A stretch of 5,227 nt of DNA from a virus. Location: positions 1-5,227 of IMG/VR virus record IMGVR_UViG_3300045988_028249; one strand, 5' to 3'. This document shows positions 155 through 5,227 of the stretch, piece after piece. A program made the translations under genes and the position numbers. Within the stretch, counting starts at the first letter, position 1, and each line of letters begins with the position of its first letter. Below the pieces are notes generated by a model that made no database searches, was not told the origin of the DNA, and saw only the letters and a list, made by a program, of their open reading frames with translations.

Positions 155-757
155 ATGTCTGGTTGGGCTGCGCTTGCCAAAGTTGGCGGTGATTTAACGA
201 ACTCAGCGTTAGGTCTCTACGCTTCTTCTAAAGCTTGGCGTCGTCAGCGTGAAGCGGCTCAAAACGCTCATCAATGGGAAGTTGCTGATCTCCGGAAAGC
301 CGGTTTAAATCCGATTCTTTCGGCCACTGGTGGTTCCGGTGCTTCTGCCGGTTCTGCTTCGGTTCCTGCTGGTCTCGGTGTTGATCTTGGTGGTGCTATT
401 AGCACTGCTCAGAATGTGGAGAATTCCAAATATGCTAATCAGTTGAAGAAACAACAGGAAACTTTGGCCGACAAGCAAGGTCAGTTAGTTGATGAACAAA
501 GGAGTACCGAAAAGACTAAGCAACGCGCTAATTTGGAGCAAGGTGCTTTGTTTAGTGCTTTGGCTTCTGCCAAAGAGCTTGAGAACTTCATTCCGTCGTA
601 CTATATCGACGGCTTGCGTCGGAATCCCAAGGATCTTCAGCGCGCTCTTGACCAATATAAATCTAAGGTTGTCAAGGATTCTATTGGTGGCTCGCTTGGT
701 TCAATGAATGCTCTCGGCGCTCTTATTCTCAATTCTGCTAAGAGTTTTTTACAATGA
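155..757 (+). CDS. VP2: Minor capsid / DNA pilot protein VP2 (gokushovirus-type), 200 aa
   Basis: ATG ORF with a strong SD, sited directly after VP1 as in gokushoviruses. Gly/Ala/Ser-rich N-terminal half with a ...DLRKAGLNPIL... motif, which I recall as characteristic of gokushovirus VP2. Codon usage (T-ending codons) matches VP1 and VP4. Confidence 0.8.
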   Translation: MSGWAALAKVGGDLTNSALGLYASSKAWRRQREAAQNAHQWEVADLRKAGLNPILSATGGSGASAGSASVPAGLGVDLGGAISTAQNVENSKYANQLKKQQETLADKQGQLVDEQRSTEKTKQRANLEQGALFSALASAKELENFIPSYYIDGLRRNPKDLQRALDQYKSKVVKDSIGGSLGSMNALGALILNSAKSFLQ

Positions 758-1050: not shown

Positions 1051-1234
1051 CTGCCTACATCCCTTTTATTGCGCGTAGGCGAAGCCTAAAGCCGCGCCCC
1101 TTGTCGCCAATTCGGAGTCCAATTGTGTTCCAAGGCGCGGCGTAACGCAGCATCTCCTACGTGTTTAATGGATGTACCGCGTAGGGCGCTCTAAGAAGAT
1201 GTCTCACCTAGCGCGCCCCTACTTTCAATACCTA

Positions 1235-1260
1235 TTACCCGCATCGCGGGTTTACTTTTT
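1235..1260 (+). terminator. Candidate rho-independent terminator: stem acccgc/gcgggt with loop atc, followed by TTTACTTTTT
   Basis: GC hairpin (1236-1241 / 1245-1250) followed by a T-rich run 1251-1260. It lies 185 nt downstream of the VP1-VP2-ORF8 gene block. Confidence 0.4.
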
Positions 1261-1408
1261 CCGTGGTAAGCCTCTAAAGAGGCAACTCCCCTTTCGAGCC
1301 AAAAGGGCGGCGTGCCGAAGGCCGCCGGTCGTTGGCGTAGAAAGGATGTCGGCGGTAGTGGCGGAGATCTGAGACCTAAGCCGAGACTGTGTAGGAACTG
1401 CGAGCGGT

Positions 1409-1471
1409 GTCGTAGCGTTACGAAGTCGCGTAGCTTGCGAAGCGAACGAGTAGCGCGTAGACATCGCGAAG
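1409..1471 (+). repeat. Three degenerate direct repeats (~17 bp; consensus approx. CGCGTAGC-TT-(A/G)CGAAG), iteron-like, 80-140 nt upstream of the Rep gene
   Basis: gtcgtagcgttacgaag (1409-1425), tcgcgtagcttgcgaag (1426-1442), gcgtagacatcgcgaag (1455-1471). A related CGCGTAG motif also occurs at 1073-1079 and 1179-1184. Confidence 0.4.
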
Positions 1472-1550
1472 CGTTCCGAAACAGGCTCGTGCGACGGTCG
1501 AAGGTCGCCGCCGCGACAAACCGCCGACCCCCACTACGGAGTGAGATCGT

Positions 1551-2558
1551 ATGACTTGCTACCACCCCATTACGATGTACCGCTTGCGAAGCGGTAAAAA
1601 TCCTGTTACCGGTGCGTGGCCTCTCACATCGTCTCCAAAGTTAGGTTATACGGATAAACCTGTGCAGGTTCCCTGTGGTCAGTGCATTGGCTGTCGTCTT
1701 GAGTATGCTCGCCAGTGGACAGACCGTTGTGAAAAAGAGTTGATGCACCCTTATCTGCCGCTGATTCCTGAACTTGAAAAGGTTCAGGCAGGTGCGAAGG
1801 TACAACAACTCGAGTACAGGAAAGAGAGTTGTTTTCTAACGCTGACTTATGACAATGAACATCTTCCGGACGATAAAGGACTTAATAAGTCAGATTTGCA
1901 AAAGTTTTGGAAACGTTTTCGAAAGGCCCATCCCCTGGTACGTATTCGCTATCTTGCTTGCGGTGAGTATGGCGACCAACTGGGTCGCCCTCACTATCAT
2001 GCTATTGTGTTTGGTTATTCTTTTGATGGAGTAGAACCCTGGTGCAAAAATGAACTCGGTCAATATACCTACGTCTGCAAGGAACTCTCGGAACTTTGGC
2101 CGCTTGGCCTTGCCACGGTGACTAATGATGTCTCCCGTGAGTTGATTGGTTATGTCGCCCGCTACGTCGTTAAGAAGGTCAACGGTGATATGTCGATCGC
2201 TCACTATACCGACCCCGAAACTGGCGTGATCCGCCAAAAGGAATTTCTCGTTATGTCCCGTCGTCCAGGTATCGGTGAAAATTGGATTCGTGAAAACGCA
2301 GCCGAAGTTGTGGCTCACGGTAACACCCTTCTGAGCAATGGCCACCTTGCGCCGTTGCCCAGGTACTTTGAGAATAAGGTTCTTCAGATTGCCGACGAAG
2401 CTACTACTAAGGAACTATTGACAAACAAGGAAAGACGTGCTATAGTGGCACGTAAGAAGGTTGAAGATAACACGCCTGATCGTCTTGGCGACCGTGAGGA
2501 AATCAAGCTCCGACGGGCTTCCCTTCTTTCCCGCAGGTTGGATTCTGCTCTTGCGTGA
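1551..2558 (+). CDS. VP4: Replication initiation protein VP4 (rolling-circle HUH endonuclease, phiX174 gpA-like), 335 aa
   Basis: Motifs read directly: CFLTLTYD (RCR motif 1). HYHAIVF (HUH, nt 1992-2000). GYVARYVVKK with two Tyr 4 residues apart (Y201, Y205; nt 2151-2165), matching the phiX174 A YVAKYVNKK active site. N-terminal CGQCIGC Cys cluster. GGAG SD 9 nt upstream. Confidence 0.95.
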   Translation: MTCYHPITMYRLRSGKNPVTGAWPLTSSPKLGYTDKPVQVPCGQCIGCRLEYARQWTDRCEKELMHPYLPLIPELEKVQAGAKVQQLEYRKESCFLTLTYDNEHLPDDKGLNKSDLQKFWKRFRKAHPLVRIRYLACGEYGDQLGRPHYHAIVFGYSFDGVEPWCKNELGQYTYVCKELSELWPLGLATVTNDVSRELIGYVARYVVKKVNGDMSIAHYTDPETGVIRQKEFLVMSRRPGIGENWIRENAAEVVAHGNTLLSNGHLAPLPRYFENKVLQIADEATTKELLTNKERRAIVARKKVEDNTPDRLGDREEIKLRRASLLSRRLDSALA

Positions 2559-2598
2559 ATTCGACGTTACTACTATTATGTTGAATGAGGTTTGAATC

Positions 2599-2877
2599 AT
2601 GATTCTCGTTTCTGTCTATGACAAAAAGGCTCAGACGTTTTCTCAGCCCTTTTGCGCGATCAACGAACAGGTTGCAATTCGTCAGTTTGGCGACGCGGTG
2701 CGCGACACTAATACGGCGATTTGTGCGCATCCTGAAGACTATCAGCTGTTCAACGTTGGTGTTTTTGATGAGTCCCACGGCGTTTGCATTCCTGCTGACC
2801 GTTGCACTGACGGTCTTCACCTTGCTCCCGTTCATCTCATTGATGCCATCTCCTTAGTGCCGCCCGTGCAGGCCTAG
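2599..2877 (+). CDS. VP5: VP5-like small non-structural protein (92 aa) of gokushoviruses
   Basis: Positioned directly after VP4. N-terminal ...VYDKKAQTFSQPFCAINEQVAIRQFGDAVRD...HPEDYQLFNVGVFDESHG resembles the conserved VP5/ORF5 pattern (F-x-V-x-D-x-K-A-x-x-F...PF...N-x-G-x-A-x-R-x-F...PED-x-L...G-x-FD) as I recall it. GAGG SD upstream. Confidence 0.7.
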   Translation: MILVSVYDKKAQTFSQPFCAINEQVAIRQFGDAVRDTNTAICAHPEDYQLFNVGVFDESHGVCIPADRCTDGLHLAPVHLIDAISLVPPVQA

Positions 2878-2963: not shown

Positions 2964-3449
2964 ATGTGTATGTTTCGTACCCGCTACGCGAAGGACGTTA
3001 AAGCGCCTTCCCACGGTATCGAGTTCGTACAGCCCTCTCAGGCTATCCAGTCGGAAAAGGAAGGTACGACGATTGATTACTACCTGCGTAAATACGCTTC
3101 TACTGGCATTCTTGGTGATCCTGAATCCGCGATGAACATGCAGTTTGGTGACTTCACGGATGCCCCTGATTTTGAGACTGCCCAAAACCGTGTCGTTCAG
3201 GCGTCGATGTATTTCGACAATTTGCCCGCGAAACTCCGCGAACGCTTCGGAAACGACGTTCGCGAAATGATGGCATTCCTCTCGAAGGAGGAAAACCATG
3301 AAGAAGCCGTCAAACTCGGTCTGCTTGAGGCTCTGCCTGAAGCTCCTACACCTTTACCCGAAGTCGAGCCCGTACACCCGATTACGGATGTTCAGAACCC
3401 TGCTAAGGAACCGTCTAGCGTTCCCGCCGAACCTAAACAGGAGGTTTAG
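2964..3449 (+). CDS. VP3: Internal scaffolding protein VP3 (161 aa from ATG 2964; the six-frame ORF extends to a TTG at 2949)
   Basis: Conserved core ...AMNMQFGDFTDAPDFETAQNRVVQASMYFDNLPAKLRERFGNDVREMMAFL..., typical of gokushovirus VP3 (QNR...LPA.LR.RFGND). Acidic/Pro-rich C-terminal tail. GGAG at 2951-2954 gives 9-nt spacing to ATG 2964. ATG 2970 is an alternative start. Confidence 0.85.
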   Translation: MCMFRTRYAKDVKAPSHGIEFVQPSQAIQSEKEGTTIDYYLRKYASTGILGDPESAMNMQFGDFTDAPDFETAQNRVVQASMYFDNLPAKLRERFGNDVREMMAFLSKEENHEEAVKLGLLEALPEAPTPLPEVEPVHPITDVQNPAKEPSSVPAEPKQEV

Positions 3450-3451
3450 AG

Positions 3452-3511
3452 ATGTTTCGCAAATCTCGCCGTCGTAACCGCCGCGGTCGCCGCGGCAAAA
3501 CCCGTCGCTAA
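3452..3511 (+). CDS. Tiny Arg-rich peptide (19 aa, MFRKSRRRNRRGRRGKTRR), a positional analogue of phiX174 J (immediately upstream of the major capsid gene)
   Basis: Strong SD AGGAGG (3439-3444) 7 nt upstream. Begins 2 nt after the VP3 stop. 12 of 19 residues are Arg/Lys. Located directly before VP1. Confidence 0.5.
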   Translation: MFRKSRRRNRRGRRGKTRR

Positions 3512-3592: not shown

Positions 3593-5227
3593 ATGAGCAA
3601 AACTTCTGCCCGCCCTTTTGGAACTTCCAACTCCCTTTTCTCTCAGATTCCGCGTGCTGAGATTCAGCGCTCTGCTTTCGATCGTTCTCATGGTTATAAG
3701 ACTACGTTCAATGAAGGTCTGTTGATTCCCTTCTTTGTGGACGAAGTCCTTCCTGGAGATACTTTTTCGCTCTCTTGGGCGGCTATTTGCCGTCTCACGA
3801 CCCCGATTGTTCCTTTCATGGATTCGATCTATCTGAAAGCTTATTGGTTCTTCGTTCCTAATCGTTTGGTCTGGAATAATTGGCAGCGCTTTATGGGTGA
3901 ACAGGAAAATCCCACTGATTCGACCGATTTCCTCGTCCCTTCTTTTAATACTACTGGCTCTGGCGCTACTTATGGCACGCTCTGCGACTACTTCGGCATC
4001 CGCACGGGTGTTAAAGGTATTAAGAATATTAATGCGCTCCCCTTCCGCGCCTACTTTAAGATTTGGAATGACTGGTTCCGCGATGAAAACTTACAGGATT
4101 CTCAAGGCGAATGGAATCAGACAACGAACCCTCAGCATTACACTGATCCGATTGGCGATGCTTCGATTGATTACACCTTGACGATGCCTTTGCGTCGGAA
4201 TAAGTTTCACGACTATTTCACGAGTTCTCTGCCTTGGCCTCAGAAAGGCGACCCCGTACAGATTTCGCTCGGTTCGTCTGTTCCTTTGTCTATTTCTAAC
4301 ACTCTTGCTGTTACTGGTAATGGTTCGCCGACTTTTACTAGTCCTTATGGTATTTCTGCGGCTGATGCTGTTAAGGCTTCTTCTAATAAGCCTACTACTT
4401 TGTACTTTGCCTCCTCGGGTAATGTTGCATCTTGGTCGAATCCTGCTCTTACTCTTTCTGGGTCTATTACTGGCACAGCCGATCTTTCTCAGGCTCAGCC
4501 GATCACCATCAATGACTTGCGCCAGGCTTTTCAGATTCAGAAGTTGAAGGAACGTGACGCCCGTGGCGGTACTCGTTATACTGAAATTTTGCGTGCGCAC
4601 TTTGGTGTCGTATCCCCTGACGGTCGTCTTCAGCGTTCGGAATTTCTTGGTTCCTCGACCTCTCAGATTTATGTCTCCGAGATTGCTCAGACGTCTGCCT
4701 CTGACTCGACTACCCCACAAGGCAACTTGGCTGCCTATGCCGTCGGCCGTGACCGCAAATTCGGTTTTACGAAGTCCTTTGTGGAGCATGGCTTCATCAT
4801 CGGCCTCATCACGGCTACTACGGACTTGACCTATCAGCAAGGCGTCAACCGTATGTGGAACCGTCGTGACAAGTACGACTACTATTGGCCTGCCCTTGCT
4901 CATCTTGGTGAACAGGCAACTCTTAACAAAGAGATTTTTGCCCAAGGCACTGCTGACGATGACAAGGTGTTCGGTTATCAGGAACGTTGGGCTGAGTATC
5001 GTTATTATCCGTCGATGATTACCGGTAAGTTGCGCTCTGATGACGCTCAGACGCTTGACATGTGGCACTTGTCTCAGCGCTTCGAGAACCTGCCCACGTT
5101 GTCCAGTCAGTTTATCGAAGACCGGCCTCCGATTGATCGTGTGGTTGCTGTGCAGTCTGAACCTCATTTCATTCTTGATGCTTGGTTTAAGTTGCGTTGC
5201 GTGCGTCCGATGCCGGTGCGCTCTGTG
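3593..5227 (+). CDS. VP1: Major capsid protein VP1 (gokushovirus-type). This is the 5' 1635 nt; the ORF continues across the circular junction to nt 143 (552 aa in total)
   Basis: Translation MSKTSARPFGTSNSLFSQIPRAEIQRSAFDRSHGYKTTFNEGLLIPFFVDEVLPGDTFSLSW...TPIVPFMDSIYLKAYWFFVPNRLVWNNWQRFMGEQ...ALPFRAYFKIWNDWFRDENLQ... carries the hallmark N-terminal motifs of Microviridae major capsid proteins. The frame has no stop before the window end. The six-frame track omits it only because it runs off the window. Confidence 0.97.
   Translation, partial: MSKTSARPFGTSNSLFSQIPRAEIQRSAFDRSHGYKTTFNEGLLIPFFVDEVLPGDTFSLSWAAICRLTTPIVPFMDSIYLKAYWFFVPNRLVWNNWQRFMGEQENPTDSTDFLVPSFNTTGSGATYGTLCDYFGIRTGVKGIKNINALPFRAYFKIWNDWFRDENLQDSQGEWNQTTNPQHYTDPIGDASIDYTLTMPLRRNKFHDYFTSSLPWPQKGDPVQISLGSSVPLSISNTLAVTGNGSPTFTSPYGISAADAVKASSNKPTTLYFASSGNVASWSNPALTLSGSITGTADLSQAQPITINDLRQAFQIQKLKERDARGGTRYTEILRAHFGVVSPDGRLQRSEFLGSSTSQIYVSEIAQTSASDSTTPQGNLAAYAVGRDRKFGFTKSFVEHGFIIGLITATTDLTYQQGVNRMWNRRDKYDYYWPALAHLGEQATLNKEIFAQGTADDDKVFGYQERWAEYRYYPSMITGKLRSDDAQTLDMWHLSQRFENLPTLSSQFIEDRPPIDRVVAVQSEPHFILDAWFKLRCVRPMPVRSV
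5109..5227. repeat. Second copy of the terminal redundancy (equals nt 1-119)
   Basis: Exact identity with nt 1-119. Confidence 0.95.

Follow-up and report, generated by a model that had tools for sequence, protein, structure and literature searches.

What are the short direct repeats that precede the gene of the rolling-circle initiator (Rep, or VP4) in the viral record IMGVR_UViG_3300045988_028249? The window, that is, the whole analysed stretch of 5227 bases, covers a circular genome, 5108 nt in length, plus a terminal redundancy of 119 nt; all its genes are on the + strand and, judged from the gene content, the phage is a gokushovirus. Gokushoviruses are the most abundant single-stranded DNA (ssDNA) phages in gut and environmental viromes. 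To our knowledge, the origin of neither strand has been mapped in them, and our literature search yielded no description of gokushovirus origins. The first-pass annotation described three degenerate repeats of about 17 bp as iteron-like, by analogy with the Rep-binding sites that flank the nick site in other rolling-circle replicons, and hence as a candidate origin or Rep autoregulatory site. The repeats are indeed non-random, conserved and adjacent to the Rep gene, and a cis-acting role in replication is the leading explanation, but their reading as iterons, repeated duplex units for Rep binding on either side of a nick site, is not supported. As judged from the comparison of related genomes, the repeats are the paired arms and the tip of a long hairpin and not independent binding units.

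Repeats and the fold of the region upstream of Rep

The sequence contains the repeats as described, two of them contiguous (1409–1442) and the third after a 12-bp spacer (1455–1471); they start 142 nt and end 80 nt before the Rep ATG at 1551. However, the best alignment of the units is CGTAG-N4-6-CGAAG (14–16 nt), not fixed 17-mers. In this form the direct repeat is found three times in 1411–1471, always on the + strand. At least six copies of CGTAG or CGAAG share this orientation at distances of about 8–11 nt, roughly one helical turn. The heptamer CGCGTAG occurs within the repeats (1427–1433 and 1454–1460), and the two additional upstream copies that had been listed are present, but at the corrected coordinates 1072–1078 and 1178–1184. 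The copy in the reverse orientation, CTACGCG, does lie in VP3 (2984–2990), but a single copy is no more than chance would give. All copies of CGTAG in the genome fall within 1051–1550.

Motif counts were compared with those in 2000 dinucleotide-preserving shuffles of the region 1051–1550. CGCGTAG is observed four times against 0.20 expected, and none of the shuffles reaches this number. GCGTAG has five copies (0.53 expected), CGAAG six (1.4 expected, P=0.003), and GCGAAGC three (0.17 expected, P=0.0005), the complement of the latter being absent from the entire genome. The degenerate motif CGNAG occurs 16 times in the 500-nt gap, with 4.5 copies expected, and again this is not reached in any shuffle. 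Since the complement, CTNCG, stays at expectation (3 copies, 3.0 expected), the enrichment is strand-specific. Among about 125 microvirus and bacterial loci, an excess of CGNAG over CTNCG of at least 8 per 300 nt is seen only in this clade, and the composite motif CGTAG-N0-8-CGAAG is at the chance level in 1.27 Mb of background sequence. The GNA motif has the sequence features of the DNA mini-hairpins GCGNAGC and GCGNNAGC (Hirao), as it is above chance and on one strand only, the G and A of the loop are fixed, the middle base is free, and the closing pairs are kept. The motif cores are invariant in six relatives.

The region between the small open reading frame (ORF) and Rep has a conserved, strand-specific, non-coding secondary structure. 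It spans 500 nt (1051–1550), has a GC content of 0.57–0.61 compared with about 0.48 around it, and contains no credible gene. The folding z-scores of the segment 1041–1560 are -9.0 for the + strand as RNA, -5.4 for the + strand as DNA, and -4.6 for the - strand as RNA. Relatives with Rep 87–93% identical were collected from IMG/VR, metagenomes and Logan assemblies (L001, L004, L005, L007, L008, L012); in L001 the identity is 94% for the non-coding region and 83% for the capsid gene. Five full-length copies give a consensus fold of 159 pairs, and its cells are paired in 98.1% of cases, compared with 33–45% when the partners are slid by 1–3 columns. Twelve pairs change on both sides yet stay paired, whereas every slid control has zero such pairs, and L012 adds two more compensatory pairs; these counts come from related sequences and so overstate independence, and only six to seven close relatives carry this version of the rod described below (type A). 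None of 500 shuffles reaches the values observed for the consensus fold.

The main component of this structure is a rod-like hairpin of about 180 nt. Its helices of 4–9 bp are split by purine-rich internal loops of the sheared-G.A type, which along the ladder are A/G, GA/GA, TAA (TGA in relatives)/GAC, A/G, GTA/GAA, GA/GAA, GTA/GTA and GAA/GA. In the upper half of the rod the loops recur every 8–11 nt on each arm. The stability of the rod is strand-specific, with z-scores for the + and - strands of -7.8 and -3.7 as RNA and of -4.7 and -1.7 as DNA.

The three repeats form the upper part of the rod, and five pairs covary within 1409–1471: T1410-A1461 becomes C-G, C1411-G1460 becomes T-A, A1420-T1451 becomes C-G, T1426-A1446 becomes C-G, and G1428-C1443 becomes A-T. 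The apical hairpin is invariant in all members of the clade, and the pairs flanking it covary (consensus pairs 390–410 and 392–407). In the loops, the G and the A never change while the middle base does, with GTA replaced by GGA and GAA by GTA in L004 and L007. A symmetric internal loop C-GNA-G/C-GNA-G has the same pentamer on both arms, and therefore produces apparent direct repeats; for the same reason the pentamer recurs in one orientation and its reverse complement is not enriched. The 17-mers do not in general fold into separate CGTAG/CGAAG hairpins: covariation supports the pairing of repeat 1 with the spacer and repeat 3, and only repeat 2 folds on itself.

These observations argue against iterons: selection keeps the pairing between the repeats and not the identity of the units, and the middle base of the loop changes in relatives whose Rep is about 92% identical. 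Nor was any nick-site candidate found next to the repeats, where no conserved unpaired nick-like sequence is seen; the CTTG tip loop is kept in the clade and is absent from the hairpin of a more distant clade represented by L013.

A coding role of the region was rejected, as the internal ORFs have no Pfam match. The + strand ORF 1312–1554 is not retained as a gene: it is lost in L004 and L007, due to indels, and in genomes with the other type of module. The - strand ORF 1252–1464 (62–93 aa) persists in the type-A relatives, with its C-terminal part frame-shifted in L004 and L007. This ORF is most likely a by-product of GC-rich palindromic sequence, given that the known genes of microviruses are without exception on the + strand. 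The scan of 1051–1550 with the Rfam 15 covariance models (E<=10) yields nothing, the same scan of the non-coding regions of L006, L013 and L014 (E<=1) produces only sub-threshold terminator-like matches elsewhere, and a distant blastn search against 50,697 phage records gives no match to the region.

Two module types and their distribution among relatives

In two relatives, L006 and L098, the segment 1227–1550 is replaced by a block of about 350 nt (type B; 2648–3000 in L006, 832–1182 in L098) that blastn does not align to type A. Otherwise genomes with the two types are about 87–92% identical, and the Rep proteins of L006 and L098 are still about 92% identical to that of the window. The breakpoints are an A/T-rich stretch at about 1227 and the Rep start codon. 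This arrangement indicates that the module is exchanged by recombination. The block upstream of the breakpoint, domain 1, is kept in genomes with either module, L006 and L098 being about 90% identical to the window up to about 1226.

The type-B module, represented by these two sequences, likewise folds into a long hairpin; its loops are GTG/GTA and GAA/GGA, and near the tip it has an identical CGTAGCTTGCGAAG. The apical hairpin is the same in both types. Downstream of the type-B hairpin there are three perfect mini-hairpins in tandem, whose loops differ between L006 and L098 only at the middle base (GAA/GGA, GTA/GAA) and whose stems covary. A covarying base helix in these genomes abuts the Rep Shine-Dalgarno sequence, as do the predicted closing helices in type A.

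Iterons normally co-diverge with their Rep. Here, the module is replaced by a non-homologous one although Rep is still about 92% identical, and the same CGTAG...CGAAG hairpin occurs in the L013 clade, whose Rep is only 45% identical; hence no sequence unit that is conserved and changes with the specificity of Rep is observed.

In the L013 clade, a GC-rich block of about 285 nt occupies the same place and starts with a terminator hairpin. Within this block, a hairpin of 35 nt has the same design (helix, GA/AA, helix, GTA/GAA, GC-GAA-GC). In L014, GCGAAG-rich hairpins are situated in a different gap, after ORF5. Beside the GCGAAG repeats both L013 (about 4562–4791 plus 1–236) and L014 (1407–1445) have a long alternating-CG hairpin, e.g. 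CGCGTGCGCGCGCGCG-ATT-CGCGCGTGTGCGCGCG, which is upstream of Rep in the L013 clade and after ORF5 in L014. In the more distant relatives L010 (Rep about 65% identical, with N-terminal residues 3–106 matched), L014, L015 and L016 (43–45%) and L009 (35%), the small ORF and Rep are separated by 3–125 nt, which hold no more than a single terminator hairpin. The element is not a general feature of gokushoviruses, since about 70 other genomes have gaps of at most 230 nt and no motif bias.

Candidate functions of the rod

We tentatively suggest, with a probability of about 0.4, that the rod is an element resembling a single-strand origin (SSO), a single-strand initiation (ssi) site or a primosome assembly site, and acts in the viral (+) DNA. 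The fold is conserved, strand-specific and non-coding, and both energy models favour the + strand, which in the Microviridae is the packaged one. Under this reading, the rod would serve as an SSO in the single-stranded viral DNA. After infection, its very stable hairpins, capped and interrupted by GNA loops, would resist coating by the single-stranded DNA-binding protein (SSB). The fixed hairpin structure would be presented to the host priming machinery (primase, the PriA primosome or RNA polymerase), and synthesis of the complementary strand would start. With their spacing of about 10 nt, the purine loops would all point to the same side of the rod, where a protein could bind repeatedly.

The loop types provide one argument for this. 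GNA triloops and mini-hairpins with 2-bp stems are stable when made of DNA but weak as RNA, and the region has neither GNRA nor UNCG loops. GCGNAGC and GCGNNAGC form extraordinarily stable DNA mini-hairpins (melting temperature 70–76 C) that bind SSB poorly, and mini-hairpins of the GCGNAGC class are found at the complementary-strand priming sites of G4, St-1 and alpha3 and at ssiA of RSF1010 (PMC13037366). The F-G intergenic region of phiX174 contains GCCGAAGCGG and AGCGAAGCG; this is the region that harbours the hairpin recognised by the primosome (PMC9865509). Conserved hairpins that precede Rep in other microvirus clades and show compensatory changes have been suggested to initiate the negative strand (PMC9865509).

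The pattern of conservation is of the same kind. Extensive intrastrand pairing is under selection in non-coding DNA and is oriented with the packaged strand, and structure is retained over sequence in exchangeable cassettes, as both types form a rod that has GNA/GNA loops and ends in an identical tip. SSOs, too, are exchanged as cassettes. The replacement of the cassette by a non-homologous module of the same design, while Rep remains about 92% identical, is SSO-like behaviour. Moreover, the motif is not tied to Rep, because the GCGAAG-rich block of L014 sits in a different gap. Characterised SSOs are orientation-specific, conserve structure over sequence, and measure 150–340 nt (PMC4595007).

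Several facts weigh against an SSO-like role. The + strand RNA has the same sequence, so that the structural results fit an RNA element equally well; the z-score for RNA is stronger than that for DNA; and the end of the element coincides with the ribosome-binding site of Rep. A comparable region is absent from most of the surveyed gokushoviruses, yet all need priming of the complementary strand, and hence the element is not a general gokushovirus solution. Its length of 180–500 nt exceeds that of the sites in phiX174 or G4, and apart from the generic mini-hairpin motif it has no homology to any characterised SSO or primosome assembly site. No sigma-70-like promoter or its mimic was found in 1260–1550, and the motif bias of the L013 clade (6:0) is within the upper tail of the background.

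The main rival, possible but less favoured, is an RNA element: the Rep mRNA would have a structured leader, or the rod would serve in RNA processing or stability (e.g. as a substrate of the RNase III type), and Rep translation would be limited or timed by occlusion of the Shine-Dalgarno sequence. Transcription of the region is probable, given that every gene is on the + strand, and its fold is strongest with RNA parameters. The element is situated directly between the terminator-like hairpin and the Shine-Dalgarno sequence, and the predicted closing helix (1261–1267 with 1533–1539) takes in the first two G of GGAG; the abutting base helix in type B fits as well. However, the closing helices in contact with the Shine-Dalgarno sequence are invariant and so have no covariation support, the tips are GNA triloops and 2-bp GCGNAGC motifs, which suit DNA better than RNA (PMC13037366), and Rfam matches are absent. 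Further, the hairpins of L014 are in a gap that does not adjoin Rep, and relatives with Rep 43–65% identical have no leader at all.

It is unlikely that the element is recognised by Rep at the viral-strand origin, whether as CGTAG/CGAAG duplex iterons, as a folded ssDNA hairpin read by an HUH nuclease (cf. TnpA of IS200/IS605 and REP-associated transposases), or in Rep autoregulation. The proximity to the Rep gene and the regular spacing of at least six copies in one orientation are as expected in this case, the left breakpoint of the module swap (about 1227) is A/T-rich, as may occur at rolling-circle origins, HUH enzymes commonly recognise hairpins, and GTAG with a hairpin is the REP/RAYT signature. 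On the other hand, selection acts on the pairing between units, the middle base drifts while Rep is about 92% identical, Rep does not change in step with the module swap, the same tip motif accompanies a Rep of 45% identity, and nothing conserved and unpaired beside the repeats looks like a nick site. The viral-strand origin of phiX174 lies within gene A and has no iterons, which also counts against this explanation.

Still less probable is some other role of the folded strand, such as genome condensation or capsid tethering through the small Arg-rich protein encoded next to it, the diversion of host nucleases or defence systems as a decoy, or a non-coding RNA in its own right. Periodic purine loops on a single face would suit a protein that makes repeated contacts, the Arg-rich ORF immediately precedes the element, and domain 1 with the terminator resembles a structured 3' end; but nothing speaks specifically for such a role, there is no Rfam match, and microviruses couple packaging to replication, with no packaging signal known to be required. 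Finally, Tandem Repeats Finder does not call the three units in the window, and GC-rich DNA readily produces recurrent short motifs; nevertheless, the idea of functionless repeats arising by chance in such a spacer is refuted by the motif excess over dinucleotide-preserving shuffles, the 94% identity of the region between genomes whose capsid genes are 83% identical, and compensatory changes at no less than 14 pairs.

The SSO-like reading has a more specific version, which is possible but doubtful. The rod with its (G-N-A)x(G-N-A) loops spaced by a helical turn might be an undescribed single-stranded recognition scaffold and the first identifiable complementary-strand origin of gokushoviruses; it could recruit several copies of a host priming protein (or of Rep) along one face, and the interchangeable types A and B might adapt the phage to the replication machinery of the host. 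In the literature searched, we found no description of a rod with GNA/GNA loops, of one of this size, or of two interchangeable module types. The element is a bounded candidate of about 180 nt for the conversion of ssDNA to duplex; its structure is defined, and nature supplies both compensatory mutants and a swap of the module. Its periodic GNA-loop architecture would add to what GCGNAGC mini-hairpins are known to do where ssDNA synthesis is initiated. If it acts at the RNA level instead, it would be an unusually large leader for a 5-kb phage. That symmetric G.A-type internal loops can create apparent direct repeats beside rep bears on the annotation of iterons in ssDNA replicons.

Genomic context and comparison with known systems

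The features of the window are listed in Table 1. The Rep of the nearest annotated phage is only 42% identical to that of the window. The 39-aa Arg-rich ORF has no Pfam match, and its homologues are situated ahead of Rep in the relatives. A second Arg-rich ORF of 19 aa (MFRKSRRRNRRGRRGKTRR), located at 3452–3511 between the scaffold and capsid genes, may encode a J-like DNA-condensing peptide.

Table 1. Coordinates of the structural elements, repeats and genes in the window.
Feature	Coordinates	Strand	Details
VP2-like ORF	155–757	+	
Arg-rich small ORF, 39 aa	931–1050	+	candidate J/VP8-like DNA-binding protein; its stop is the 5' edge of the non-coding region
Domain 1, structured block	1051–1236	+	branched hairpin (about 1053–1179) and hairpin (about 1180–1221); from consensus fold and pair counts
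Mini-hairpin TAGGC-GAA-GCCTA with GCGAAGC	1076–1088	+	TAAGC-GAA-GCTTA or TAAGC-GATA-GCTTA (GCGNNAGC class) in relatives
Intrinsic-terminator-like hairpin ACCCGC-ATC-GCGGGT followed by TTTACTTTTT	1237–1260	+	from terminator scan; separates domain 1 from domain 2
Hairpin with GCC-GAA-GGC tip	1290–1345	+	one base pair dropped in L004 and L007, giving GC-GAA-GC; triloop kept
Rod-like hairpin, about 180 nt	1348–1528	+	ladder of the consensus structure; seven covarying pairs plus two from L012
Upper part of the rod (three repeats)	1409–1471	+	5' arm, repeat 1; 3' arm, spacer and repeat 3, which pair with repeat 1; tip, repeat 2
Repeat 1	1409–1425	+	gtcgtagcgttacgaag
Repeat 2	1426–1442	+	tcgcgtagcttgcgaag
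Apical hairpin CGTAG-CTTG-CGAAG	1429–1442	+	C-G, G.A, T-A, A.G, G-C, CTTG loop
Spacer between repeats 2 and 3	1443–1454	+	cgaacgagtagc
Repeat 3	1455–1471	+	gcgtagacatcgcgaag
Rep Shine-Dalgarno sequence GGAG	1538–1541	+	9 nt before ATG
Rep/VP4, rolling-circle initiator	1551–2558	+	PF23343, E = 1.2e-20
dif-like attachment site	2559–2586	+	between Rep stop codon and ORF5; ends with ACTACTATTATGTTGAAT (2569–2586)
ORF5	2599–2877	+	PF20577
Chp2-type scaffold (VP3)	2964–3449	+	PF09675
F-type capsid	3593 onward	+	PF02305; wraps round the junction

Outside the rod, the region is structured as well. The mini-hairpin of domain 1 is paired in all seven sequences, and its pair G1078-C1086 is replaced by A-T in five of them; the long-range alternative chosen by the RNA energy model is broken at two positions in two of the seven. 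In L007 and L008, GCGAAGC is changed to GCGATAGC and the flanking pair covaries. The terminator-like hairpin is invariant in the type-A relatives. In the hairpin 1290–1345, consensus pair 273–288 changes from AU to GC, and a paired 2-nt deletion at the tip converts GCCGAAGGC into GCGAAGC in L004 and L007. About 60–70 nt within 1229–1300 are invariant in all five type-A genomes, while the neighbouring sequence has diverged by about 10%. This stretch holds the terminator-like hairpin, its T-run and the hairpin GCCTC-TAAA-GAGGC, which points to selection on the primary sequence.

Two candidates inside the Rep gene were rejected as parts of the element. The second copy of GCTTGCGAAGCG, at 1582–1593, is Rep-coding and varies in relatives. 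A 15-nt exact identity, CGAAGCGGTAAAAAT, is shared by Rep codons 13–17 (1587–1601) and the F-G intergenic region of phiX174 (L017, 2313–2327), and is followed by a hairpin in both genomes (CGGTAA...TTACCG in the window). Rep codons 14–18 have no synonymous change in nine relatives, but the CGA codon varies. As this match lies inside Rep codons (11–17 together with GCTTGCGAAGCG) and is not conserved, it is probably explained by coincidence and coding constraint.

The contig L098 is binned to an uncultured Sutterella. Its phage homology stops right after ACTACTATTATGTTGAAT, the last 11 bases of which we take to resemble the XerD arm of the E. coli dif site, and beyond the junction (2170–2215) there are bacterial genes (permease, Fic, CMD, aminotransferase). 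Because the homology ends at the dif-like site and bacterial genes follow, the phage is a temperate gokushovirus of a betaproteobacterial gut host, integrating probably through XerC/XerD. Integration at a dif-like site has been described for enterogokushoviruses (PMC7062461). The structured region was rejected as the phage attachment site (attP), since the prophage junction is situated after Rep, at 2559–2586. Another double hairpin ending in a T-run is observed between ORF5 and the scaffold gene (2850–2940 in the window, 1452–1540 in L013, 4277–4358 in L006). It has recurrent sub-threshold Rfam matches to the anti-hemB and P9 small RNAs (20–27 bits, with gathering thresholds of 43–49.5), and is probably just an intrinsic terminator conserved in position.

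The natural comparison is with the PriA (n') site of phiX174 and the origins of G4, St-1 and alpha3, which are also non-coding strand-specific hairpins in microvirus ssDNA, and start the complementary strand. These priming sites of the phiX174/G4 type measure roughly 50–140 nt. The class of mini-hairpins is shared, with GCCGAAGCGG and AGCGAAGCG in phiX174, GCGAAAGC in G4 and GCGTTAGC in St-1/alpha3 (the latter three phages: PMC13037366). However, the sites of the Bullavirinae are located between the capsid and spike genes and not upstream of Rep, have no periodic GNA/GNA internal loops, and show no alignable homology to the rod; the 15-nt string inside Rep (1587–1601) is the only one in common.

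The plasmid origins ssoA, ssoU, ssoT and ssoW and sso1 of ICEBs1 resemble the rod in being orientation-specific extensive imperfect hairpins of 150–340 nt that are active only as single strands and preserve structure over sequence (PMC4595007). They, too, are cassette-like and often close to rep, but have been characterised mainly in Gram-positive replicons. The hallmarks of ssoA are RSB and CS-6 (TAGCGT/A), the latter in the terminal loop. Neither is present here as such: TAGCGT at 1413–1418 spans an internal loop and a stem, and this single 6-mer match is compatible with chance.

Hairpins of the reekeekee- and roodoodoo-microviruses are situated just before Rep, have compensatory substitutions, and have been proposed, without proof, as negative-strand signals (Olo Ndela et al. 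2022, PMC9865509). Unlike the 180-nt rod with G.A loops, which is part of a 500-nt multi-domain region and exists in two module types, they are single hairpins of 13–64 nt. The iterons of circular Rep-encoding ssDNA (CRESS-DNA) viruses and rolling-circle plasmids are likewise short repeats in one orientation near rep at roughly helical-turn spacing. However, iterons are duplex units matching Rep, whereas the units considered here pair, covary, tolerate changes of the central base, and outlast both the divergence of Rep and the replacement of the module.

Finally, the region upstream of gene II in the Ff phages (M13/f1) is about 500 nt of non-coding sequence that starts with a terminator and contains several hairpins, including the minus-strand origin, as well as the packaging signal and the plus origin. 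Ff belongs to another virus family without homology to the window phage, and its minus origin mimics a sigma-70 promoter, whereas none is detectable here; the likeness is in the layout, a non-coding block of about 500 nt that directly precedes the gene of the rolling-circle initiator, with the terminator first.

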